Source: Gammaproteobacteria bacterium | GTDB lineage: Bacteria > Pseudomonadota > Gammaproteobacteria > GRL18 | Direction of reading: 5' to 3' | DNA length: 45,444 nucleotides | Assembly (NCBI GenBank): GCA_027011205.1 | Contig: JALVAL010000631.1 | Coordinates: 1 to 45,444 of the forward strand | Part shown: in pieces, positions 16,133 through 28,405 of the stretch | How positions within the stretch are numbered: the first letter of the stretch is position 1 | How the letters are laid out: every line of letters starts with the position of its first letter | Notes under the pieces: generated by a model | Told to the model about the DNA's origin: nothing | The model's input: only the letters and a program-made list of their open reading frames with translations | Database searches by the model: none | Made by a program: the position numbers and the translations under genes

Positions 16133-17932
16133 GTGCCAAACCCCAAACTTGATTTAATTTATAATCTTTACAAGCTCCCAGATAAATGGAAATCTGGTAT
16201 ACATTCTATTAGAGATCCTAAGACAAATAAAATAAAAGTGATTGATACCACTGTAGATCAGTATATCCATGCAAAGCCAGACCCTAAGGGTAAAAAGCCT
16301 AAGATTGTTGAAACAAAGCTTACAACGCCGCCGATAGAAGAATTTCCCTGGGTACAACATGATCCACCAAAGTCTGCCATTGGATATGCACCTATATCCA
16401 GGGCCATGGCAGAGGATTTGGACACTGCCACAGTAACGTGGTGCGTTATAGATATTGATGGAAATCCTAATATTGCTGATGGTCTATACAATGCTGTTTC
16501 CAGCATTGTTTCTAACATCAAAGCTGCCAATAATCAAAATATTCTGTATAATCCCTTACCAGTTAATATATTACCATCATACTCCCGCACAGGTGTACAT
16601 GTGGTCCTCTTTTTTAATAAGCCAATTCTCGTAAACCATGTAAGGGGTTACGTTGCTGTTGTAAAGCTTATTCTTGCTTATGGTTTGCGTAATTTTCATC
16701 TAAAATGCACCTCTCAGGGCTTTGAGTCTTTCAAATTTGATAAAGTGTTCCTGGATAACCCTGGCCTCAGAGTGCTTTTACCAAACCCAGCGGATTTTCC
16801 GGAGGAGCCTGTTATTATAAATATATCTAAGATTGTACCGGTACCGCCATGCATGCAGTCAGTCATTGATCTTGCGGATTCAATTAATATGCTTGATCAT
16901 GATGGAACATTACCAAGTATTATTAAAAAAGGTGAACGCAACAACACCACATATCAACTTACACTTTATCTTAGGTACTTTGGAGTAAAAAATCCTACGG
17001 CTCTTATTTATTATATTATGAAGGGATATAATGACGCTGGAAGAGACAAAACTATTAAAAGTGCTAATAAACAATATAAAAGATGCTTGGAAGAAGGAAG
17101 CGGAATTGGATTTGGATGTAAAAGATGCCCATCTGATAGAAAGGAAAATTGTAAAATAGGTGGTGCTGTGTCTCAGGCCAAGGTAATAGATACCTTGGAA
17201 AAATTCAAACTTAAAATTGAGATTGAAAAAGGCACCAAAAATGAAGCGTATATTTTAACCTTTCTCGATGCTATCGAGTATCGATTTAACTTCAAGGAAC
17301 TTTCCAGTTGGCATACAGTTAAATCCAAATTGATTCAATCGGGCGCTGGTGTTGATGAAATCAGAAAGATTGACAAAAAATTATGGGGAGAAATGTGGGA
17401 TTTTTTATTAGAAAGTGCCGAAGTGAAGCGCACAGACAATCCAACATATTTGATGGTAAGAAATCACATTATTAATAGCATACACACTGCGGTAAAGGAT
17501 CCGGCTGTTCTTTTAAGGAGTAAAGATAAGTTCATCGGGTTTTTTGACAATAGCTTTCATGTTTCTATTGATAAATTGGTATATTCCAGCAAAAAGATGT
17601 ATAAGCCACAGGATGTGGCAACTGCACTTAAGATTTATTTTGATGTGGAGCCGACACCTTATACTGGTGTATATAAAATAAAATCAGATGAACTCGTGCC
17701 GCCTTTGGAAGTGGATGCCAAGGACAATTTACTTGCATCCGGAAAGCAGGTTTCTTATGATGATATCAGAAAAGGATTCCAGTTTATGGGTGCGGAATAT
17801 TGTACGACTATAAACGGACGACTTTATCTTATTCCATCGGAACTGATTCAGGAGGATAAGGGCTTGCGGACAATAGTAAAGGAAGAGATCCTGAAAAAAA
17901 GACGGAGTATCAAGAGAAATCGTGATTTTTAA
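16133..17932 (+). CDS. Primase-polymerase (archaeo-eukaryotic primase superfamily) with a PriCT-like and C-terminal extension.
   Basis: GTG start with an AGGAG SD. AEP motifs are present: VIDIDG (DxD), SRTGVHVVLFF (sGxGxH) and LDNPGLRVLLPN (motif III-like). The PriCT-like stretch is KKGERNNTTYQLTLYL, and a Cys cluster reads CKRCPSDRKENC. Confidence 0.6.
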   Translation: MPNPKLDLIYNLYKLPDKWKSGIHSIRDPKTNKIKVIDTTVDQYIHAKPDPKGKKPKIVETKLTTPPIEEFPWVQHDPPKSAIGYAPISRAMAEDLDTATVTWCVIDIDGNPNIADGLYNAVSSIVSNIKAANNQNILYNPLPVNILPSYSRTGVHVVLFFNKPILVNHVRGYVAVVKLILAYGLRNFHLKCTSQGFESFKFDKVFLDNPGLRVLLPNPADFPEEPVIINISKIVPVPPCMQSVIDLADSINMLDHDGTLPSIIKKGERNNTTYQLTLYLRYFGVKNPTALIYYIMKGYNDAGRDKTIKSANKQYKRCLEEGSGIGFGCKRCPSDRKENCKIGGAVSQAKVIDTLEKFKLKIEIEKGTKNEAYILTFLDAIEYRFNFKELSSWHTVKSKLIQSGAGVDEIRKIDKKLWGEMWDFLLESAEVKRTDNPTYLMVRNHIINSIHTAVKDPAVLLRSKDKFIGFFDNSFHVSIDKLVYSSKKMYKPQDVATALKIYFDVEPTPYTGVYKIKSDELVPPLEVDAKDNLLASGKQVSYDDIRKGFQFMGAEYCTTINGRLYLIPSELIQEDKGLRTIVKEEILKKRRSIKRNRDF

Positions 17933-17960: not shown

Positions 17961-18122
17961 ATGCAAAGGATATGTGACAAGGAGCCGTCCATTGAATGGA
18001 TCCGGAAAGAATGGTTGGAGTCCTTTGGGTATCCCCTGCCTGTGGACTATGACAAGAAATATAAAAAAGGACTCACACTTGATATAGGAGCATTAATAGA
18101 TGAATATAATAGGAGAAGATAA
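17961..18122 (+). CDS. Small hypothetical protein.
   Basis: A 53-aa ORF from an internal ATG of the listed ORF 17922..18122. It fills the gap between the primase and the helicase. Confidence 0.35.
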   Translation: MQRICDKEPSIEWIRKEWLESFGYPLPVDYDKKYKKGLTLDIGALIDEYNRRR

Positions 18123-19566
18123 AGAAGCATATTTTGTAAAATGCCGGTTTGAGCACAACCACTTGTTAGAGGGCCTGGACAAGCGGTGGAACAAGAGAAC
18201 ACGCTCATGGCGGGTGTACAAAAGCAGGTTAAATATTGCGTTGTTGGTTGACTTGGGGCTTTTACCAAAAGATCAGCTTTCAAGTCCACCAATGGTGCCT
18301 GCACCATTGGATCTAATTTTTCATACGGAACCCAGGTTATACCAGGAAGGTGCAGTTCGTTTTCTTTTATCTCTTCCTTATGGTGCTTTAATTGCGCCTA
18401 TGGGGTCCGGCAAGACAAAAATCATGATTGATGTTATCAACAATCTCATTGGAATCAGGGATATTAAGGCTTTGATCATTGGCTTGGTGTCTATCAAAAA
18501 GAACTGGGAAGATGAAATAAAGATGCACGCTCCAGAAACCCTGCCTTTTTGCAGGATAGAGGGTATTGAGTCGCTTTCTTCTTCAAAGAAGTTAAATAAG
18601 GAGCTTCAGAAATATGTGGATGACCGTACTTTGGTGGTCATTGATGAGGCCCACACCATAAAGAATCCGAATGCCAAAAGGACCAAAAATGCATATAAGA
18701 TTGCAAAACCTGCCAGAAGGCGGTATGTAATGACAGGGACACCAGTGCTAAATGGCAAGGAGGATTTGTTTTCCATATATGGTTTCTTAAACCCTGATAT
18801 CATAGGTATTAGTACCTTTATAGGGTTTAAAAATAGATATTGCATCAGAGGCGGATTTGAAAATAGGCAGATTGTAGGTTATAAGAATGAGGATGAGCTT
18901 ATGGAGAATATCTCCAAGTACACCTTCTTTATATCCAAGAAAGATGCTATGCCGCATCTGCCCCCACAGACTGATGTTAAGAGGGAGTGCAAGATGACTC
19001 CGAAACAACGGGAGCTTATCAATGTGGTGCTGAATGATGGGGAACTAAACCCGCTCACCAAATTGCTCCGGATCCTGCAGATATCTGGCGGTTATGATCC
19101 TGTTTCACGTGAAACATTTACGGCACCAAAGATCAAGCTCCTGGATGAGATTGTGGAAACAGGAGAAACACTGGTAATATATGCAAATTTCATTTCAGAG
19201 ATCCGCACTATATCTGAACGATATAACGCACCATTTATTGATGGTGGCATATCGCCTAAGGACCGCCATGAAATTGTCCAGGACTTCCAGAATGGTGCGT
19301 TTCCTGTGATAGTTGCTCATCCTGCAGTGGGGTCTACTGGCATCAACCTACATTGCGCATCTACTATGGTTTTTTACAGTTATTCACATAATCTTGGCCA
19401 TTATCAACAGGCCAAAGGCAGGATTGCCAGGATGCAACAGATTAACCCCATGGTGTATTACCACCTCATCACCAAAGGCACTTTAGATGCAAGAGTGTTA
19501 TGGTGTCTGCAGCATAAAAAGAGCATTCTGAAGAATGTAGAAGAGATTTTATCACAATTGGATTGA
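18100..19566 (+). CDS. SNF2-family helicase / DNA translocase.
   Basis: Motif I is APMGSGKT, motif II is VIDEAHTIKN, motif III is MTGTPVLNGKEDLFSIYGFLNP and motif VI is QQAKGRIARMQQ. Confidence 0.85.
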   Translation: MNIIGEDKEAYFVKCRFEHNHLLEGLDKRWNKRTRSWRVYKSRLNIALLVDLGLLPKDQLSSPPMVPAPLDLIFHTEPRLYQEGAVRFLLSLPYGALIAPMGSGKTKIMIDVINNLIGIRDIKALIIGLVSIKKNWEDEIKMHAPETLPFCRIEGIESLSSSKKLNKELQKYVDDRTLVVIDEAHTIKNPNAKRTKNAYKIAKPARRRYVMTGTPVLNGKEDLFSIYGFLNPDIIGISTFIGFKNRYCIRGGFENRQIVGYKNEDELMENISKYTFFISKKDAMPHLPPQTDVKRECKMTPKQRELINVVLNDGELNPLTKLLRILQISGGYDPVSRETFTAPKIKLLDEIVETGETLVIYANFISEIRTISERYNAPFIDGGISPKDRHEIVQDFQNGAFPVIVAHPAVGSTGINLHCASTMVFYSYSHNLGHYQQAKGRIARMQQINPMVYYHLITKGTLDARVLWCLQHKKSILKNVEEILSQLD

Positions 19567-19679: not shown

Positions 19680-19982
19680 ATGGATGTATCAAAGGCAGAA
19701 AGGGCATTTGAAAAAATGCCGGTGGAAGATGTTTTTGAACTCAATCCAGAAACCGGTGAGCTTTTTTGGAAGATCACCAGAAACAACAAAAAGGCCGGAA
19801 CACGTGCTGGCACTTTCCATGCAAGAAGTGGATTCAGGAAAATAATGTTCAATTACTGCAGTTTTTCTGAACACCAGATTGTGTGGAGGCTTGTACATGG
19901 GTATTGGCCAGAGAAGCCCATCATTCACATCAATGGAGATAAAACAGACAACAGACCAGAGAACTTGAAAGAGAAAGAATAA
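19680..19982 (+). CDS. HNH endonuclease (HNH_3-type), probably a free-standing homing endonuclease.
   Basis: The motif HQIVWRLVHGYWPEKPIIHINGDKTDNRPENL matches the family. It has a strong SD (AAAAGGAGG) and its own promoter. Confidence 0.8.
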   Translation: MDVSKAERAFEKMPVEDVFELNPETGELFWKITRNNKKAGTRAGTFHARSGFRKIMFNYCSFSEHQIVWRLVHGYWPEKPIIHINGDKTDNRPENLKEKE

Positions 19983-20371
19983 TGCGCAAACTTATCGAAG
20001 AATTTAAAGAAATCAAAGACGAATTGGCAAAGATCAAAGAACAAAAGAAGGAACTACAAAAGAAGTTCGATGAATATCGGTTCAAGTTGATTCCTGAGGC
20101 CATGGAAGAAGCCGGTTTGGAGCGTGCTACATTTGATGGGATAGGTACTGTGTATCTGACATCAGATATATACTTCAGTATTCCGGCACCCAAAAAGGAG
20201 GATGCTTTTAGATGGCTGCATCACCATGGTCACGGGGATCTTATCACGGAAACCGTGAATGCGTCCTCAGGAAAGGCTTGGGCAAAGGAGATGCTCCAGA
20301 AAGGTGAACAGTTACCTGAAGATTTATTTAAAATAACGCCTTATACCAGGGCAGTATTAAAGAAAGGATAA
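19982..20371 (+). CDS. Hypothetical protein with an N-terminal coiled coil, possibly Gp157-like.
   Basis: It is 129 aa with a Lys/Glu-rich helix followed by a globular part. The family assignment is from memory only. Confidence 0.45.
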   Translation: MRKLIEEFKEIKDELAKIKEQKKELQKKFDEYRFKLIPEAMEEAGLERATFDGIGTVYLTSDIYFSIPAPKKEDAFRWLHHHGHGDLITETVNASSGKAWAKEMLQKGEQLPEDLFKITPYTRAVLKKG

Positions 20372-20376
20372 GAACG

Positions 20377-21075
20377 ATGACAGACGAAATTATGAAAACA
20401 GAAGGAATCATTACCGAAGAAAGACCGGACTGGATGGAGATTGAAGAGGGTGATAACAGGGGATCTGAAGAGGTCACACACGAAGACCTGATTATCCCAA
20501 GGCTCAGCATCATCCAGGGCTTGAGTCCGGAACTTAAGAAAAAGGATCCGGCTTATATCGAAGGTGCCGAAATCGGTATGATCTTTAACACTGTTACCCG
20601 TGAGCTTTATGGGGATTCAGTGGTGGTGATACCGGTACTCTTTAAGAAGTTTTATATCATCTGGAAGCTTCGAGATGAGGGTGGCGGATTTGCTGGCCAA
20701 TATGACACATTTAAAGAGGCTGAAAATGCACTTGTAGAATTTGAAGATCCAAACAAGTACGAGATAGTGGACACTCCAACAAACCTATGTTTGCTCCCAA
20801 ATGGCCAGGAAGTTATGGTACCCATGCCCAAATCCAAGGCCAAGGTAGCCAGGCAATGGAACAGCCTGGTGAGGATGGCAGGAGGGCCACGCTGGAGCCG
20901 TGCATATAAATTATACACGGTAGATGAGACATCAGATAAGGGTGATTATGTGAATTACGCTGTGGCCATGATAGGATATCCATCAAAGGAACTCTTTGAT
21001 AAGGCCACGGAGCTTTATGAACAAATTACCAGCGGTGCGGTGAATGTCTCTATGAATGAAGATGAGCCGTTTTAG
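20377..21075 (+). CDS. Conserved replication/recombination-module protein of unknown function.
   Basis: It is 232 aa with an acidic N- and C-terminus and the motif DLIIPRLSIIQGLS. I cannot assign a family with confidence. Confidence 0.5.
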   Translation: MTDEIMKTEGIITEERPDWMEIEEGDNRGSEEVTHEDLIIPRLSIIQGLSPELKKKDPAYIEGAEIGMIFNTVTRELYGDSVVVIPVLFKKFYIIWKLRDEGGGFAGQYDTFKEAENALVEFEDPNKYEIVDTPTNLCLLPNGQEVMVPMPKSKAKVARQWNSLVRMAGGPRWSRAYKLYTVDETSDKGDYVNYAVAMIGYPSKELFDKATELYEQITSGAVNVSMNEDEPF

Positions 21076-21114: not shown

Positions 21115-22116
21115 GTGAACGTTAAGGTGATCATAGGCTGCCCTGGTGCAGGAAAGAGCACATATCTGGCCAGGGCAGCCAACCGGCTTGATCCCAAGAA
21201 AACTATAATAGTATCTTTTTCAAGAAAGGCTGCAAAAAGCATCAACAATAAACTTGGAAAAGAATATAGGGCTTCAACCATACATAGTTATTGTTGCAGG
21301 GCATCAGGTATAAGACCTGAAGACATTATAACAGACTATGATATATCAAAAGAAGCTATGGAGGTATACAACCATGCATGTAACATAACTGAAGAGATGA
21401 TAACTGAAGAAAGCATTATTGAAGCATGTTTGCATAAAGGGTATTACAACATTGATGAAATCACAGATGAAATAAGCAAATACATACAATATAAGGAGGA
21501 CCACGTACTTTATGACTTTAATGATATGTTAAAAGTGTTCACTCCATATAAGGTGCCGGAAAACTTGCTTATAGATGAGGCCCAGGACTTATATCCGGCT
21601 TTAAAAGGGGTAATAGACAGGCTCATAAAAGCCGGACTTAAGAATTTGTGGCTTGTTGGAGATCCGGACCAGTGCATATACCAATTCAACGGATCAGATC
21701 CAAAGATTATGACTTCATATGGTGGAGAAATCAAATATCTGGATCAATCACACAGATGCCCAGAAGAGGTAGTGAAATTTGCTAAACAAATCTTGCCGCA
21801 TGCAAGATTTAAACCTACAGATAATAAAGGGGAGGTGATATATACAGATAAGATCCCAAAAGATGCAGAAGTTGTTCTTGTAAGAACCAAGTATGTGCAG
21901 GTAAATAGTGATAAGACTATGACTATGCACAAAGCAAAGGGACTTCAATGGAACAGAGTTGCAATATATGATGACATAGGGAGTACAAAAGTAAACGTTA
22001 ATAACGAAGAAGAGAAACGATTAATGTATACTGCTATTACAAGAAGCCGTGATGTGGTATATATTGTGAAAGGAAACTATGATTATTTATATCGATACAG
22101 AAACGACTGGCGTTAA
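21115..22116 (+). CDS. Superfamily 1 DNA helicase (UvrD/Dda-like, compact form).
   Basis: Walker A is GCPGAGKST and Walker B is LLIDEAQDL. The C-terminal motifs are MTMHKAKGLQWNRV and YTAITRSRDVVYIV. The GTG start has no clear SD. Confidence 0.75.
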   Translation: MNVKVIIGCPGAGKSTYLARAANRLDPKKTIIVSFSRKAAKSINNKLGKEYRASTIHSYCCRASGIRPEDIITDYDISKEAMEVYNHACNITEEMITEESIIEACLHKGYYNIDEITDEISKYIQYKEDHVLYDFNDMLKVFTPYKVPENLLIDEAQDLYPALKGVIDRLIKAGLKNLWLVGDPDQCIYQFNGSDPKIMTSYGGEIKYLDQSHRCPEEVVKFAKQILPHARFKPTDNKGEVIYTDKIPKDAEVVLVRTKYVQVNSDKTMTMHKAKGLQWNRVAIYDDIGSTKVNVNNEEEKRLMYTAITRSRDVVYIVKGNYDYLYRYRNDWR

Positions 22117-23806
22117 TTTGTTCACTGGTGATAAGATATTCGGTATAAGCTGGGCATTGGGTGATACTGAACCCAGGTACATTGATGTGCGAAATCAGGA
22201 TATTGCACCATTTAAACGAGACCTTAATAAAGCAGATCTGGTGGTCGCACATAATGTAAAGTTTGATGCTCATGCTCTTTATCAAATAGGCATAGACCTT
22301 ATCCATTATAACTTGGATTGCACAATGGTGCGTGCTCAGCTTCTTGATGAGCACAAGTTCAATTATGACCTGGATAGTCTGACCGGTGAAAAGTTGGACA
22401 TTATAGATGATCTGGCGGACATGTTTGGGGGCAAGGCCACCAAGAATGTACAGATGAAAAATCTGCATAAAGTATCGCCAGAATTTGTGGCCAGGTATGC
22501 CAAGCAGGATATTGTTGCACTCCGCAAGCTTTATAAGGAACAAGAGGAGCAGGAATTTCCGCCTGTATATGAGCTTGAGCGGAAAGTAATCAAGGTGCTG
22601 ATCCAGATGGAAAGAAGGGGTATCAGGGTAGATACCGGCAAAATTGATGAGACTATTTATTCTGTCAAAAAGATGATAGATGCCAAGCAAAAGGAGCTTG
22701 ATAGCATTGCCGGAAAGCATCTTAATGTAAATTCTACTCCTCAGATGCGGGGATTTCTGGTAAAGAAAAGGCTCAAGAGCGGGAAATTTGAGCTTGTAGA
22801 TGGCACTATAGCGGGGGCCACCAAGGCTGATGCTGCGTCTCTTGATGCTGATACCCTCAAGCAAATGACATATCCGCCGGCAAAGCTGATATTGGATATC
22901 AGAAGGTATAAAAAGATCCTTGATACTTTTTTGGTGTCTCAGATTCAGGGGCATTTGGTAAATGGACGTGTACATCCCAATTTCAATCAGACCAGGGTGG
23001 TAACAGGCAGGCTTTCATGCAACAGTCCAAATTTGCAGGCTATTCCCAAAAGGGATCCTGAAATGAAGAAGTTGCTCCGGAGCTTGTTTATTCCAGAAGA
23101 GGGCGCAAAGCTTCTGAGGTGTGATTATGAGCAGAGCGATGTGAGAGGGTTTGCACATTATATATCGCTCAGGGATCCTGACCATCCTATTAAAAAGGCA
23201 TATCAAAAGGACCCGTACACTGATTTTCACACTTTGGTTGCTGAAATGATGGACATTCCCAGGGACCCTAACCCAGAAACAGGTAATGCTAAGCAACTTA
23301 ACCTTGCTCAGATTTTTGGTATGGGTGCAGGAAAGCTTGCACAAACCATGGGGCTTAATTACACCATAAATGAAGAAGGCTTTCTGGTGCCAGGAGAAGA
23401 GGCTCAAAGGTTATTTGATTTATATCACGAGACCATACCAGGAGTGGGTAACATGTCTAAAAAAGCTGCGCACCGTGCAAGGCTCAGGGGATATGTAATA
23501 TCTATCCTGGGAAGGTACCTCAGGTTTCCGGATAAAAGATTCTGTCATAAGGCAGCTGGATACCTGTATCAAGCATGGACAGCGGATATCATAAAAGCAG
23601 CTATGGTAAGCACCTATAAAGTGCAGCCTCTCCATTTATCGGTGCACGATGAGCTTATATTTTCAGTATATGATATGGAGCTTATCAGCGTGATCAAGCA
23701 CAAAATGGAAAGTGTGCTGGATGGAATATCTGATATCCCAATTCGTACTGTACCAGAAATAGGCGACAATTGGGCATCTACTAAACCAATAACCGAAGGT
23801 TATTGA
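22079..23806 (+). CDS. Family A DNA polymerase with a 3'-5' proofreading exonuclease domain and no 5' nuclease domain.
   Basis: Exo motifs are YIDTETTG and HNVKFD. Pol motif A is LLRCDYEQSDVRGFAH, motif B is NAKQLNLAQIFGMGAGKLA and motif C is SVHDELIF. Confidence 0.9.
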   Translation: MIIYIDTETTGVNLFTGDKIFGISWALGDTEPRYIDVRNQDIAPFKRDLNKADLVVAHNVKFDAHALYQIGIDLIHYNLDCTMVRAQLLDEHKFNYDLDSLTGEKLDIIDDLADMFGGKATKNVQMKNLHKVSPEFVARYAKQDIVALRKLYKEQEEQEFPPVYELERKVIKVLIQMERRGIRVDTGKIDETIYSVKKMIDAKQKELDSIAGKHLNVNSTPQMRGFLVKKRLKSGKFELVDGTIAGATKADAASLDADTLKQMTYPPAKLILDIRRYKKILDTFLVSQIQGHLVNGRVHPNFNQTRVVTGRLSCNSPNLQAIPKRDPEMKKLLRSLFIPEEGAKLLRCDYEQSDVRGFAHYISLRDPDHPIKKAYQKDPYTDFHTLVAEMMDIPRDPNPETGNAKQLNLAQIFGMGAGKLAQTMGLNYTINEEGFLVPGEEAQRLFDLYHETIPGVGNMSKKAAHRARLRGYVISILGRYLRFPDKRFCHKAAGYLYQAWTADIIKAAMVSTYKVQPLHLSVHDELIFSVYDMELISVIKHKMESVLDGISDIPIRTVPEIGDNWASTKPITEGY

Positions 23807-23845
23807 TTCGGATCAGTGAAAGGAAAAAAGAAAAGGAGAAACGAA

Positions 23846-24220
23846 ATGAATCAAGCAATACTTATTGGAAACCTTGGAAATGACCCAGAACTATCATACA
23901 GCAGAAACGGTGACCCATATACCAAATTTAACATAGCCACCAATGAAAGAGATGGCAAGACCAACTGGCACCGCATCATATGTTTTGGTAAGACTGCTGA
24001 AAACTGTGAAAGGTACCTCAAAAAAGGTAGCAAAGTAGCTGTGTTGGGTAGAATTGAGTATGGCCAGTATGAAGACAGAGATGGTATAACCAGATATACC
24101 ACGGACATCATTGCATTTAACGTGGAATTTTTAGACACCAAAACCGATAACAATAATAAGCATATTCCACCAACAAGATATAAAAAGAGGTTTGACGATG
24201 AATCCGATATCCCATTTTAA
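23846..24220 (+). CDS. ssb: Single-stranded DNA-binding protein.
   Basis: The OB-fold N-terminus is MNQAILIGNLGNDPEL and the acidic C-terminal tip is DDESDIPF. An AGGAG SD precedes the internal ATG at 23846. Confidence 0.9.
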   Translation: MNQAILIGNLGNDPELSYSRNGDPYTKFNIATNERDGKTNWHRIICFGKTAENCERYLKKGSKVAVLGRIEYGQYEDRDGITRYTTDIIAFNVEFLDTKTDNNNKHIPPTRYKKRFDDESDIPF

Positions 24221-24506
24221 ACAATGCAGCACCTCTGAATGCCACAACAGAGCTGTAGCTAAGTCAACGCTTACTGGCCAGTTTTATTGTATAAGATGCG
24301 CCATACAAACTACTGTTAATATTGGACCAGATGCAGTGGAAACTTTACCCGATGCAGTGTGGCCATGGAATGACACTATAACATGCAGGTCATGTGGCAG
24401 GTTGGTATCATTGCAATTGCTGCATCGAAATAACACCTGTCCATTTTGTGCAAAAGAAGCCATTAAACTAAATGTAGAATACTTAGAAGGAGTTGGACAT
24501 GATTGA
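24198..24506 (+). CDS. Cys-rich double zinc-ribbon-like protein of unknown function.
   Basis: It carries CxxxxC, CxxC, CxxC and CxxC pairs (8 Cys in 102 aa). An AGAGG SD lies 7 nt before the ATG. Its ends overlap the SSB and PurA-like genes. Confidence 0.5.
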   Translation: MNPISHFKQCSTSECHNRAVAKSTLTGQFYCIRCAIQTTVNIGPDAVETLPDAVWPWNDTITCRSCGRLVSLQLLHRNNTCPFCAKEAIKLNVEYLEGVGHD

Positions 24507-25443
24507 TCCCGAAGTACACATAATTTGTGGAATGCAATTTGGAAGCGAAGGAAAACGCCTATTCCTGGATGTATATTCCAGGTATTTTGAGCCTGATGTC
24601 ATTGTAACGAATGCCTATCCTAATTCTGGTGGATATGATGGTAAAGGCAAAAAATGGTCAGCCATCCCATGTAGTTACCATGCAACAATAATGATATCGC
24701 CTGGATCTGCCATCAATATGGCAGCATTGAGAAGAGAAGGACACGGAAAAGAGGTACTTATCCATAAGAACGCTGCAGTGGTAAATAGTCATGCCTTGGA
24801 AGCTGAAAAGGAACTTGTCAGGATTGGGTCCACCATGACAGGGGGAATGGAAGCTGTAGTAACTAAAATGCGAAGAAATAGTGGTATAAAATGCACCGCT
24901 GGGCAGTGGCATTTAGAAGGAGTAATCAATAATGATGAATGGTTCGATAGGCTTTTATCAGCTAAAAGAATCCTGGTATTTGTTGCCCAGGGGCATAGCC
25001 TATCACTTAATTTTGGGATGTGGCCACATTGCACATCCAGGAATACCTCACCCCAGCAGGCTCTTGCAGATGCAGGCATCCCTATTCAGTGGGTAAAGCG
25101 AATAATAGGCTGTGCTCGTACATACCCTATCAGAGTTGCTAATAGATATGATGATAACGGCAATATGATAGGGTGGTCAGGCCCATGTTATCCGGATCAG
25201 AAGGAGATCACCTGGGAAGATATAGGAGTGCCACCTGAATATACCAGTATCAGCAAAAAGAAACGTAGAGTATTTACGTTTTCTGTGAAGCAATATAAGG
25301 AAGCTTTGCTTACCAATGGCATCACTGATGTTTTTCTTAATTTTATGAATTATGATCCTGATTTTGATGTTCCTGAAGAAGTATCATGGTGGGGTTGGGG
25401 ACCAAAATTGGAAGATATTGAATGGTACCCCACAAGAAATTAA
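24499..25443 (+). CDS. purZ: Adenylosuccinate synthetase (PurA)-family enzyme, candidate PurZ (N6-succino-2-amino-2'-deoxyadenylate synthase).
   Basis: Blocks collinear with PurA: HIICGMQFGSEGKRLFLD (P-loop region), IGSTMTGGMEAVVTKMRR (IGTT.rGIGPaY.dK region), FVAQGHSLSLNFGMWPHCTSRNTS (GAQG...D...G.YP.vTSsn region) and SKKKRRV (GR.RR region). MazG-like and HD genes follow immediately. Confidence 0.6.
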   Translation: MIDPEVHIICGMQFGSEGKRLFLDVYSRYFEPDVIVTNAYPNSGGYDGKGKKWSAIPCSYHATIMISPGSAINMAALRREGHGKEVLIHKNAAVVNSHALEAEKELVRIGSTMTGGMEAVVTKMRRNSGIKCTAGQWHLEGVINNDEWFDRLLSAKRILVFVAQGHSLSLNFGMWPHCTSRNTSPQQALADAGIPIQWVKRIIGCARTYPIRVANRYDDNGNMIGWSGPCYPDQKEITWEDIGVPPEYTSISKKKRRVFTFSVKQYKEALLTNGITDVFLNFMNYDPDFDVPEEVSWWGWGPKLEDIEWYPTRN

Positions 25444-25451
25444 TTTGTCCG

Positions 25452-25745
25452 ATGATTAAAATAAATATAGAGCACCCCACTACCATGGCAGCCATTACGG
25501 TGTGGGGTGCCAAAGGCCAAATTGCTATTTTACAAGAGGAATGTGCTGAACTTATATCCGCTACTGCTCGATTTAACAGGGAAAGAACAGGTACGGATCC
25601 TGTTGCAGAAGAGGTGGCGGACGTTATCGTTTCACTCATGTCAGTAATCAATGTCCTGGACATCGAAGAACAAGTTAAATTACATATGAACCACAAAATC
25701 AAACGACTTGAAAGGAGAATTAATGAAATATCCAGCACCGTTTAA
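25452..25745 (+). CDS. mazZ: MazG-like nucleoside triphosphate pyrophosphohydrolase, candidate MazZ.
   Basis: The EExxE and ExxD signatures are ILQEECAELISA and VAEEVADVIVSL. It is a small all-helical protein. The start is uncertain (25422, 25452 or 25485). Confidence 0.55.
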   Translation: MIKINIEHPTTMAAITVWGAKGQIAILQEECAELISATARFNRERTGTDPVAEEVADVIVSLMSVINVLDIEEQVKLHMNHKIKRLERRINEISSTV

Positions 25746-26148
25746 AGATAATGAAGCTTTAAGGATGCAATATATATCTAGATGGGGCATTATATCTATG
25801 AACCGTCAACAATCTGTAGCAGAGCATTGCTACAACGCTATGGTTTATGTTACCAAAATCTGTAAACTGGTAGGCAAATCACCGGAAAAGTATGTGATGT
25901 ACTTGCTTTTTCATGAACTTGATGAAGCATATACTGGAGATATCCCATCACCGCTTAAAGATAAAGAGCCTATTTATTACGGCTGCCCCATATGTAAACT
26001 GGCGGATATGGTTGAAGCATATGTATATCTTAACAATCATTGTAATGATACGTCTGAAATAAGACTATGGGTAAGAAACCGGCTTGAAGAAAAAATGAAA
26101 CCGCTTCTTAAAATGCTCAATCTTAAACTTGAGGACATAACCAAATGA
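25723..26148 (+). CDS. datZ: HD-domain phosphohydrolase (YfbR-like deoxynucleotidase fold), candidate DatZ-type dATP triphosphohydrolase.
   Basis: The motifs are RWGII....QSVAEHCYN, LFHELDEAYTGDIPSPLK (H..HD..E..tGD). An AAAGGAG SD precedes the ATG at 25723. Confidence 0.55.
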   Translation: MKYPAPFKDNEALRMQYISRWGIISMNRQQSVAEHCYNAMVYVTKICKLVGKSPEKYVMYLLFHELDEAYTGDIPSPLKDKEPIYYGCPICKLADMVEAYVYLNNHCNDTSEIRLWVRNRLEEKMKPLLKMLNLKLEDITK

Positions 26149-26732
26149 ACAAATACCTATTTGTAGATACAGAAACCACAGGGTTTAATCCAAGCATTCA
26201 CACGGTGCACCAGGTGGCAGGTATTATTTCCATAGATGGGAAAGAGGTTGATGAGTTCAATTTTGAAATGCGACCACATCCAGATAAGCAAATAGAAGAA
26301 AAGGCCCTGGCGGTTTCAGGACTCAAAATATCTGACGTTATTTCACGAGACCTTACATCTGGCCAGGCATGCACAGAATTTCGGCTGATATTGGAGCAGC
26401 ATGTTGATAAATATAATAAGGCAGATAAATTCATCCTTGTGGCTTATAATGCTTCATTTGATGCAAGTTTTTTGAATGCCTGGTTCAAATCCCATGGTAA
26501 CGACTTCTTTTTTGGTCTGGTTCATGGTGGTGCTTATCTGGATCCGCTACAGTTGGCACTATTCCTGGAGATAAAAGAAAAGAAACGCATATTTCTGCCA
26601 AATCGAAAGCTTGAAACTGTAGCCAGTACCCTGGGGATCAAGCTTGATAACGCACATGATGCTCTGGCAGATATCAGAGCCACAAAGCAAGTGTTATCAG
26701 AACTCTGGAAGAGGTTATTCAAAAATGAGTGA
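26145..26732 (+). CDS. DnaQ-like (DEDDh) 3'-5' exonuclease.
   Basis: Exo I is LFVDTETTG, Exo II is LVAYNASFDASFL and Exo III is NAHDALADIRAT. Confidence 0.8.
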   Translation: MNKYLFVDTETTGFNPSIHTVHQVAGIISIDGKEVDEFNFEMRPHPDKQIEEKALAVSGLKISDVISRDLTSGQACTEFRLILEQHVDKYNKADKFILVAYNASFDASFLNAWFKSHGNDFFFGLVHGGAYLDPLQLALFLEIKEKKRIFLPNRKLETVASTLGIKLDNAHDALADIRATKQVLSELWKRLFKNE

Positions 26733-27697: not shown

Positions 27698-27909
27698 CAA
27701 TGATGAAAATAATAATAACAATTGTTATGATAGCCTGTATGATATTTTTTATATTAAATGCCAATGTTATAATTACTAAGGTATTCGGCCCTGTTAAAAT
27801 GCCGTTTGAAGTAAAAGCCTGTATGGAACGCCATGCAAATATGATCCATTGTGATAAGCAGTATGATTATTGGTTTTCATGGTGTCACCATGAAAATAGA
27901 TATTTTTAA
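27694..27909 (+). CDS. Small membrane-anchored Cys/His-rich protein.
   Basis: The N-terminal hydrophobic segment is MMKIIITIVMIACMIFFILNANVII. The product is 71 aa. Confidence 0.45.
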   Translation: MTMMKIIITIVMIACMIFFILNANVIITKVFGPVKMPFEVKACMERHANMIHCDKQYDYWFSWCHHENRYF

Positions 27910-27928
27910 TATATGGAGAAGATTGAAA

Positions 27929-28405
27929 ATGAGAAGTTGGAATAGTTATTTTAGAAACATAGTAAGAGAAGTATCAGGGCGCAGTAATTGTGTCAAACGA
28001 CAAGTAGGCTGTGTGATTGTAAAGGACAAACGCATAATCGCTACTGGATACAATGGCCTACCTTCAGGCTTTCCAAATTGCAATGAAAACGGATGTTTGT
28101 ATCCCACACGAAAAAGCGGAGAGTCCTTAAACAAAATACCGTGTATCCATGCAGAAGAAAACGCTCTGCTTCAATGTGCCATGTACGGAGTGTCTTGTAA
28201 AGGAGCTACTGCTTATGTTAGCATAACACCCTGTAATACCTGTTTAACTAAGATGATCCAAGCAGGTATTCATACCATATTCGTTGAGAAATTTTATTAC
28301 TTGGGAGAAGATGAAGAATCACAGCGAATATGGCTGCTTGAACAAGCCAAACAATGTAACGGATTTCAATTGATATTATTACCCAAGATAGAAATTGAAA
28401 AATAA
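27929..28405 (+). CDS. Deoxycytidylate (dCMP) deaminase.
   Basis: The zinc motifs CIHAEENAL and TPCNTCLKMI-type (PCxxC) are present, and the ComEB-like N-terminus is W..YF...A..VS.RS.C.KRQVGCVIV. I chose the internal ATG at 27929. Confidence 0.85.
   Translation: MRSWNSYFRNIVREVSGRSNCVKRQVGCVIVKDKRIIATGYNGLPSGFPNCNENGCLYPTRKSGESLNKIPCIHAEENALLQCAMYGVSCKGATAYVSITPCNTCLTKMIQAGIHTIFVEKFYYLGEDEESQRIWLLEQAKQCNGFQLILLPKIEIEK

Follow-up and report, generated by a model that had tools for sequence, protein, structure and literature searches.

Does the replication block of the 45,444-bp contig JALVAL010000631.1 (assembly GCA_027011205.1), which is the whole contig and is called the window below, encode the replacement of adenine by 2-aminoadenine (Z), and does it do so with enzymes of the known families? 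The question arises from three neighboring open reading frames (ORFs; Table 1), which the first-pass annotation had read as the purZ–mazZ–datZ set of Z-genome phages: a synthetase gene (ORF1), a gene for a small nucleoside triphosphate (NTP) pyrophosphohydrolase (ORF2), and a phosphohydrolase gene (ORF3). Our comparisons support this interpretation, in that the block holds a Z-genome-type cluster, in a new, uncultured phage lineage; the window DNA most likely has Z in place of adenine (probability about 0.72). A Z genome is the best reading because ORF1 is PurZ-like, ORF3 is DatZ-like with the Trp/Ile pair of dATP specificity, the polymerase passes the threshold of the DpoZ model, and the module recurs in related contigs. 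The cluster is unusual compared with a routine one in three respects: its synthetase is without a histidine of the family active site (His-less below), a MazG-type protein from outside the MazZ family takes the MazZ role, and an exonuclease gene is added.

ORF1 is a member of the adenylosuccinate synthetase family, as had been proposed (Pfam Adenylsucc_synt, 1.1e-13). Its ATG start is preceded by a GAAGGAG ribosome-binding site; were translation to begin at the upstream TTG (24493) instead, the protein would have 316 aa. Within the family, sequence and predicted structure mark it as a relative of PurZ rather than of PurA. A phmmer search against the PDB yields the PurZ proteins of cyanophage S-2L (7odx, 1.8e-47) and phage phiVC8 (6fko, 2e-41), followed by PurZ0 (7vf6, 3.9e-9) and PurA (5e-8 or weaker). 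The AlphaFold2 (AF2) model (mean predicted local distance difference, pLDDT, 80; predicted template-modeling score, pTM, 0.85) likewise has the PurZ proteins first in Foldseek, with template-modeling (TM) scores of 0.85 for S-2L PurZ, the best match, 0.83 for phiVC8 PurZ, 0.75 for archaeal PurA, 0.73 for PurZ0, and at most 0.72 for bacterial PurA. The PurZ model is also the best of the family models for ORF1, with a lead of 130 bits. In a neighbor-joining distance tree (150 sequences, 332 columns, 200 bootstraps; reference PurZ, PurZ0, E. coli PurA, and cellular PurA-like proteins included), ORF1 and 43 further full-length sequences form a monophyletic clade (200/200), which groups with canonical PurZ (172/200); PurZ0 and PurA-type proteins fall outside this grouping. 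A position inside cellular PurA, with residues of the inosine monophosphate (IMP) and GTP-binding type, had been named beforehand as the outcome that would speak against PurZ; ORF1 lies elsewhere in the tree and has Ser at the Asp13 position and an N-F-x-N donor motif.

The binding pockets of ORF1 were compared residue by residue with the ligand contacts of S-2L PurZ (PMC8342488). The position of the catalytic Asp13 of PurA is occupied by Ser, a replacement used as a criterion for PurZ (PMC12884076), in ORF1 (S16, motif QFGSEGKR) and in all 44 clade members. The deoxyguanosine monophosphate (dGMP) pocket is kept: G15-S16, N42, G110-S111-T112, R126, Q164, C178-T179, and R212-V213. The PurZ-specific ANR..GW insertion that excludes a 2'-OH follows the R-V pair (R240-V241 in S-2L) and reads ANRYDDNGNMIGW in ORF1; at the position of S-2L Y203, ORF1 has His, and 39/44 clade members have Tyr. 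R256-R257 retain the Arg pair that follows the Asp loop. The donor pocket is of the ATP/dATP type, with N281, F282, N284, G301, and P302, to be compared with N305, F306, Q308/N297, and G335-P336 of S-2L PurZ (PMC8342488); its third motif position is Asn in ORF1 and Asp in PurZ0 and PurA.

ORF3 was placed correctly in the YfbR-like HD family by the first-pass annotation (Pfam YfbR-like PF12917, 45.2 bits against a cut-off of 25.9), and it also matches PHROG 7076, dATP triphosphohydrolase, at 6e-20; the H-D dyad then read into it turned out to be H-E. Its likelier start is the ATG at 25723, after an AAAGGAG site, which gives 141 aa. The best PDB match is S-2L DatZ (6zpa, 1.9e-6), with YfbR at 3e-4. 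In an alignment with eight DatZ sequences H40, H69, E73, G77-D78, K84, and D100 are invariant, and W26-G27-I28 (motif SRWGI) of ORF3 corresponds to the W20/I22 pair of DatZ. This pair gives DatZ its specificity for deoxyribose and adenine, and in a metagenome study based on dZ enrichment it was seen only on dZ-modified contigs. ORF3 is short, being without an insertion of about 25 aa. A DatZ-like domain is found in one related contig (L094, 8318-9454) fused to a C-terminal HNH_3 endonuclease domain, in a protein of 378 aa with an H-E dyad.

The polymerase encoded upstream is of the DpoZ type. On the NCBIfam model phage_DpoZ_1 (NF038380) it scores 511.4 bits, narrowly over the curated cut-off of 500; among the polymerases of its relatives six of seven pass the model (532–764 bits), and that of L012 reaches 471 bits with a partial match. 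The best PDB match is phiVC8 DpoZ (7pbk, 1.5e-77; Klenow fragment, 3.7e-41), and the identity is 37% to DpoZ of Acinetobacter phage SH-Ab 15497 and 33% to that of phiVC8. The signatures of phiVC8-like DpoZ are the helix-O Tyr-to-Phe change F459, L455, G548, and the helix-O insertion 2 (PMC8599892); pairwise alignment finds in the window polymerase L409 and F413 in helix O, the motif-6 Gly G494, and the helix-O insertion DPNPETG. DpoZ S583 is not shared, the window polymerase having the canonical Glu. The module is present in eight of the nine sampled clade contexts (L001, L003/L004, L012, L092, L093, L094, and L095), and with this order repeated in at least eight related contigs that are independent of one another, the arrangement of the triad is not due to chance.

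A number of observations weigh against a Z genome, and they concern each of the three proteins. On the NCBIfam PurZ model NF038379, ORF1 scores 205.6 bits, below the curated cut-off of 300, with the clade relative P0002 at 234.7 and the canonical PurZ P0067 at 421.3. In all 44 clade members, the triphosphate-contacting motif PN(A/S)GHT has become PNSGG through a His-to-Gly replacement and the loss of Thr; in ORF1 numbering, S-2L H52 corresponds to G45 and T53 is missing. Each of the 100 aligned non-clade sequences has this His. The equivalent residue of E. coli PurA, His41, is treated as catalytic, and its mutation severely impairs catalysis. For ORF2, no match to PF04447 (E ≤ 1) or PF18909 was obtained, with S-2L MazZ scoring 44.4 bits on PF04447; hhalign of ORF2 with MazZ-1 gives a probability of 13.5%, and the guanine determinants of S-2L MazZ are absent, N20 being deleted, D60 replaced by S74, and K31 by I36. 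Of the H...HD...D metal ligands ORF3 has H40, H69, and D100, and its metal-binding dyad reads H69-E70 (LLFHELDEAYTGD), with Glu for the dyad Asp; H-D is found in seven of the eight DatZ sequences compared, and H-E also in the relative L094. One clade member, P0040, lies on a contig of 135–229 kb with no MazZ- or DatZ-like gene within 10 kb on either side.

The loss of the His is a property of a coherent group. The same His is invariant in canonical PurZ (82/82), PurZ0 (3/3), cellular PurA-like proteins (14/14), E. coli PurA, and proteins from metagenome-assembled genomes (MAGs) of predatory bacteria and Clostridium (6/6). Along with it, the P-loop GS(T/C)GKG has become GS(E/C)xKR in the clade, with Gly replaced by Arg (G27 to R20) in 44/44 members; QG(F/Y)SL reads QGHSL (Y192 to H166) in 43/44; the Asp loop TTVT reads TSVS, and A50 is Ser. 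The 106 other sequences of the alignment are without these shared active-site changes. ORF1 is 50–58% identical to about 45 metagenomic proteins and at most 37% identical to any PurZ among 50,697 phage records. In a profile search of 1.84 billion representatives, the clade is a single cluster at 50% identity, scoring 579 bits, and the next representative drops to 323 bits, a gap of 256 bits.

The His-less purZ-like genes are evidently under purifying selection, with no decay, as judged from a ratio of nonsynonymous to synonymous substitution rates (dN/dS) of 0.11–0.12 in three pairs (only pairs with unsaturated dS were used, and three IMG/VR loci were left out) and from 71 columns invariant across 43 members. 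ORF1 is the shortest of them, with 314 aa compared to 324–383. The current classification recognizes PurZ and PurZ0; a literature search for a His-less PurZ, which did not extend to the 2021 Science papers and the 2023 PurZ0 paper, returned no description, and the clade is apparently an undescribed subgroup. Since ORF1 is without the His, its phosphoryl-transfer step would have to be supported differently. R20 and/or H166 are the candidates, because no other clade-specific change near the active site brings in a basic or imidazole side chain: R20 adjoins the P-loop Lys, and H166 the base-pocket Gln.

Several further observations concern the distribution of these proteins. When the best 150 representatives were realigned, P0212 was the only other protein without the His; it is an unrelated PurZ-like protein (PNSGGW) in which the P-loop (GSCGKG) and the TTVTK loop are still canonical, an indication that the His may have been lost more than once. 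The nearest sister of the clade, P0059 (on a 1.1-kb contig), keeps the His and the P-loop Gly and already shows TSVSK in the Asp loop, GSE in the P-loop, and a donor motif of the Asp type (ALTFCDY); from these residues, it looks like an evolutionary intermediate. One sublineage of the clade alters the adenine-binding Asn (LNF to LGF). IMG/VR lists six of the clade members as viral genomes, and one lies in the Desulfobulbus sp. Tol-SR assembly. The P0040 gene (L002/L013, 10001-10975) is on a jumbo-phage-like contig labeled Candidatus Omnitrophota, surrounded by many small unknown genes, a DNA ligase gene, and a TROVE (Ro60-like) gene.

The product of ORF2 is a small all-alpha protein, and the first-pass assignment to the MazG type is borne out by a Pfam MazG score of 20.9 bits, which narrowly misses the gathering score of 22, and by the two motifs, EExxE being E39-E40-x-x-E43 and ExxD being E64-x-x-D67; E39, E40, E43, E63, E64, and D67 are invariant among seven homologues. 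These homologues begin at Met11 of ORF2, so that the likelier start is the ATG at 25452 (97 aa). With this start ORF2 no longer overlaps ORF1; of the three overlapping, co-oriented ORFs described at first, all are present and lie on the plus strand, and this one overlap is gone. The AF2 model is all-helical (pLDDT 88.9), and its best Foldseek matches are MazG, HisE, and dCTPase, all at E 0.24 or weaker. A direct sequence search of the PDB with ORF2 gave no match, and a profile of the seven sequences found B. subtilis YpjD (2gta, 6e-4) before S-2L MazZ (7ody, 0.45). Pairwise, ORF2 and S-2L MazZ are 33% identical over 57 aa only, in the metal-binding helices; the guanine-reading residues of the latter are N20, D60 (and K31) (PMC8342488). 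Membership of ORF2 in the MazZ/DUF550 family of (d)GTP diphosphohydrolases was rejected on the missing PF04447 match, the 7ody E-value, and the hhalign result. By its sequence, ORF2 is thus best described as a generic MazG-type protein, MazZ-like by position and superfamily and not by family. The proposed purZ–mazZ–datZ set accordingly holds for its PurZ-like and DatZ-like members, with this qualification for the middle one; likewise, in the suggested comparison with known structures, ORF3 comes closest to DatZ 6zpa, and ORF2 is closer to YpjD 2gta than to MazZ 7ody.

In L092, L093, and L094, an orthologue of ORF2 lies between the PurZ-like gene and the DatZ-like gene. The same slot is held by a PF18909 (DUF5664) gene in L001, L003/L004, L012, and L095. 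As BLASTP of ORF2 with the PF18909 genes in the L001 and L003 slot found no similarity, the two kinds of slot gene are analogues and not orthologues. DUF5664 has been shown experimentally to act as a pyrophosphohydrolase on dATP and dGTP, and the occurrence of either type in the middle position fits a conserved functional slot.

How far could the same observations be explained otherwise? It is unlikely, in our view, that the His-less enzymes have a changed chemistry (substrate, donor, nucleophile, or product) and make another purine modification or serve mainly to consume (d)ATP or dGMP. Such a change would account for the co-fixation, in 43–44 of the 44 members, of H52 to Gly with loss of T53, G27 to Arg, A50 to Ser, Y192 to His, and TTVT to TSVS, for the score of ORF1 under the curated PurZ threshold, for the 256-bit gap to all other representatives, and for the sublineage with LGF. 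It agrees poorly with the dGMP pocket, in which the base, sugar, and phosphate contacts are all kept (S16, N42, T112, R126, Q164, T179, and R212-V213), with the retained Arg pair by the Asp loop, where the changes are conservative Thr-to-Ser replacements, and with the company of the gene, which stays among DatZ-like and DpoZ-type genes, for which the replacement of A by Z is the one rationale known. The stronger form of this idea, a third PurZ class with a remodeled site that uses a different substrate, donor, or nucleophile, such that the purine modification is not simply 2-aminoadenine, seems to us a still longer shot. A module that is only partly functional, in which an H-E DatZ-like protein and a small MazG protein exclude dATP incompletely and leave a genome of mixed A and Z or of ordinary A, is likewise improbable. 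The H-E dyad, compared to H-D in most DatZ, a substrate range of ORF2 that is not predictable from sequence, and the shortness of ORF1 within its clade would agree with it; however, H-E recurs in L094, an independent relative, and Glu is able to act as a metal ligand, every ORF is intact and has a good ribosome-binding site, stops are coupled to starts, S-2L PurZ itself consumes dATP (PMC8342488), and DpoZ proofreading is a further filter against A (PMC8599892).

That ORF1 might be an auxiliary PurA, converting IMP to adenylosuccinate for the AMP supply of the host among neighbors with generic housekeeping functions in the nucleotide pool, is suggested by the Pfam match to the general family and by the name "adenylosuccinate synthase" that its relatives bear in public sources. 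We consider this scarcely credible, and as far as sequence can show it is refuted: Ser stands in place of the catalytic Asp13 and Asn in place of the GTP-specific Asp of (T/N)KxD, ORF1 carries the 2'-OH-excluding insertion peculiar to PurZ, PurA models score at most 75 bits compared to 206 for PurZ, and tree and structure both group ORF1 with PurZ.

For the preferred reading, a genome with Z in place of A, the pathway was reconstructed by homology with S-2L, phiVC8, and SH-Ab 15497. Family, fold, clade placement, pocket residues, gene order, recurrence of the module, and purifying selection are observed; from them we infer each of the catalytic activities and the presence of Z itself. ORF2 would hydrolyze dGTP, and possibly dATP, to the monophosphate. 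ORF1 would use ATP or dATP to join dGMP and aspartate into succino-2-amino-deoxyadenylate, which host PurB, a kinase, and nucleoside diphosphate kinase (NDK) would then convert to the triphosphate dZTP. The DatZ-like ORF3 protein would remove dATP, and the DpoZ-type polymerase would copy the genome, placing Z opposite T. Sequencing reads Z as A.

Z-genome phages and the genes purZ, datZ, mazZ, and dpoZ are already known, and the cluster alone would be one more uncultured lineage. What is new is a coherent, selectively maintained PurZ subclass without both of the residues regarded as the acid–base pair of the family: PurZ had already lost Asp13, and the His-less clade has lost the His too. If these enzymes are active, a different set of residues can support phosphoryl transfer in the adenylosuccinate synthetase family, the thresholds of the curated PurZ hidden Markov models (HMMs) miss real Z-genome phages, and compact parts for Z-DNA engineering become available (a 314-aa PurZ, a 97-aa MazG, and a 141-aa DatZ). 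The alternation of MazG-type and DUF5664-type proteins in one slot supports the "functional convergence" picture of the evolution of the Z pathway.

The genes of the module and their immediate neighbors are listed in Table 1.

Table 1. Genes of the replication/Z module in the window, in order of position
Feature	Coordinates	Strand	Length, matches
UvrD/PcrA-like superfamily 1 (SF1) helicase	21115..22116	+	Pfam UvrD-helicase 3.4e-18; PHROG 1967 DNA helicase 1e-51
DpoZ-type family-A DNA polymerase with 3'-5' exonuclease domain	22079..23806	+	575 aa
Single-strand DNA-binding protein (SSB)	23816..24220	+	Pfam SSB 2.3e-31; PHROG 44
Small Cys-rich Zn-ribbon-like ORF	24192..24506	+	104 aa; weak Pfam Zn_ribbon_Elf1, 23.2 bits, under cut-off
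ORF1, PurZ-like, predicted succino-amino-deoxyadenylate synthase, His-less subclass	24499..25443	+	314 aa; PHROG 1211 "PurZ" 4.6e-51
ORF2, small all-alpha MazG-type NTP pyrophosphohydrolase, MazZ slot	25422..25745	+	107 aa; PHROG 2245 6e-19
ORF3, DatZ-like HD-domain (YfbR-like) protein, predicted dATP triphosphohydrolase, short form	25708..26148	+	146 aa
DEDDh (RNase T/DnaQ-like) 3'-5' exonuclease	26145..26732	+	Pfam RNase_T 1.5e-14; PHROG 192 "DNA polymerase exonuclease subunit" 4.8e-35

The contig has the layout of a tailed phage, in which minus-strand structural and packaging genes (terminase, portal, major head protein, and endolysin) occupy both ends and a plus-strand replication block lies at about 16.1–28.4 kb; no tRNA genes and no terminal repeat were found in its 45,444 bp. 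At about 45 kb, it represents the essentially complete genome of an uncultured tailed phage. Since a DNA-level search of the 50,697 phage records gave no match to the contig, the phage is not a known isolate. The co-oriented genes follow in the order UvrD-like helicase, family-A polymerase, SSB, Zn-ribbon ORF, PurZ-like, MazG-like, DatZ-like, and DEDDh exonuclease. The helicase opens the conserved replication/Z module in the same place as the PcrA-like helicase of SH-Ab 15497, and has this position also in the relatives L001, L003, and L092–L094. The triad lies downstream of the proofreading polymerase and SSB, as the first-pass annotation had it, if not directly so: the Zn-ribbon-like ORF sits between SSB and ORF1. 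Small ORFs hold the same spot in the relatives, that of L092 with a weak zf-C2H2 match. The replication context of Z-genome phages, claimed in the same place, is confirmed by a gene order matching that of SH-Ab 15497 and by the polymerase passing the DpoZ model.

The exonuclease gene is translationally coupled to the DatZ-like gene by an ATGA overlap. An RNase_T gene lies 3' of the DatZ-like gene in eight related contexts, directly in most of them; in L093 and L094, one to three small ORFs separate the two. The window protein is 53% identical to its L003 orthologue and could serve the Z module as an additional activity for proofreading or for recycling nucleotides. The replication block closes with a dCMP deaminase gene (27851-28405; Pfam, 4.3e-23), because of which the phage would appear to adjust the pyrimidine pool as well. 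The first gene of the block (16133-17932, 599 aa) has no Pfam or PHROG match and adjoins genes for a SNF2-type helicase (18100-19566) and an HNH endonuclease (19680-19982). A pair of genes similar to Pam3 gp33 (DUF7307) and Pam3 gp34, with unassigned function (19982-21075), always stands 5' of the helicase–DpoZ block in this lineage (the window, L001, L003, and L092–L094). PADLOC returned no defense-system match for the purZ–mazG–datZ-like triad.

Among the known systems, cellular PurA (E. coli; the short archaeal form of P. horikoshii, 5K7X) shares with ORF1 the fold, the two-step ligase scaffold, and the conserved P-loop Lys and GST, QG, R-V, and RR motifs; it differs in having Asp13, His41, and the GTP-specific Asp, where ORF1 has Ser, Gly, and Asn, and in using IMP. 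Fusions of about 530 aa, with an N-terminal P-loop/kinase-like domain and an adenylosuccinate-synthetase-like domain, are widespread in bacteria and archaea (L029, 5425-7044, in Terriglobus roseus DSM 18391; L028, L030, L038, L041, L043, L051, L069, L080, and L082). They have Ser at the PurA Asp13 position, which is partly a result of selection, as the scan pattern required "GS", and they keep the His and a PurA-like Asp-type donor motif. In T. roseus, the fusion gene is followed by a DUF7002 gene and lies beside a Schlafen/AlbA_2 gene, in what looks like a defense island. PurZ-like genes with the motifs GSTGKG, PNAGHT, and NFxNY, forming a separate branch next to PurZ, were also seen on MAG contigs of Clostridium, Bdellovibrionales, and Micavibrio (L020, L021, and L024; 264 kb, 611 kb, and 1.0 Mb); they are apparently chromosomal and may be prophage-borne or cellular.

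The PurZ0 systems of Arthrobacter, Gordonia, and Microbacterium phages (PurZ0 with DutZ/DmtZ/DUF5664-1; PDB 7VF6) resemble the window clade at two points: they have Ser where PurA has Asp13, and the third residue of their P-loop is Glu (GSE). They differ in a PurA-like L-D (Asp) donor motif, in having no ANR insertion, in matching ORF1 only at 3.9e-9 and TM 0.73, and in falling outside the grouping of PurZ with the clade. The partner genes of PurZ0 are those for DutZ and DmtZ, not DatZ.

Cyanophage S-2L (PDB 7ODX, 7ODY, and 6ZPA) shares with the window the purZ–mazZ–datZ order with short overlaps, provides the best sequence and structure match of ORF1 and the best PDB match of ORF3, and likewise has a stand-alone all-alpha NTP pyrophosphatase of about 105 aa as the middle gene product. 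It differs in that its MazZ belongs to PF04447 and has the guanine-reading N20 and D60, absent in ORF2, and in that its PurZ keeps H52-T53 (PMC8342488); moreover, S-2L is described as replicating with a PrimPol and not with DpoZ (PMC8065100).

From Acinetobacter phage SH-Ab 15497, the window differs in its synthetase, which is 36% identical to PurZ of that phage, is without the GHT histidine, and has the P-loop Arg; in its middle gene, which encodes a generic MazG protein of 97–107 aa, whereas SH-Ab 15497 has a 385-aa PF18909+PF04447 (DUF5664-DUF550) fusion, a dATP/dGTP pyrophosphohydrolase; in a DatZ-like protein about 60 aa shorter; and in the added DEDDh exonuclease, which showed no BLASTP similarity to the single downstream ORF of SH-Ab 15497 that was compared, the 208-aa ORF after DatZ. 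Common to both are the order helicase, DpoZ, SSB, PurZ, NTP pyrophosphohydrolase, and HD dATPase, a polymerase that passes the DpoZ_1 model (37% identity between the two), and a PurZ of the ATP type with the ANR insertion.

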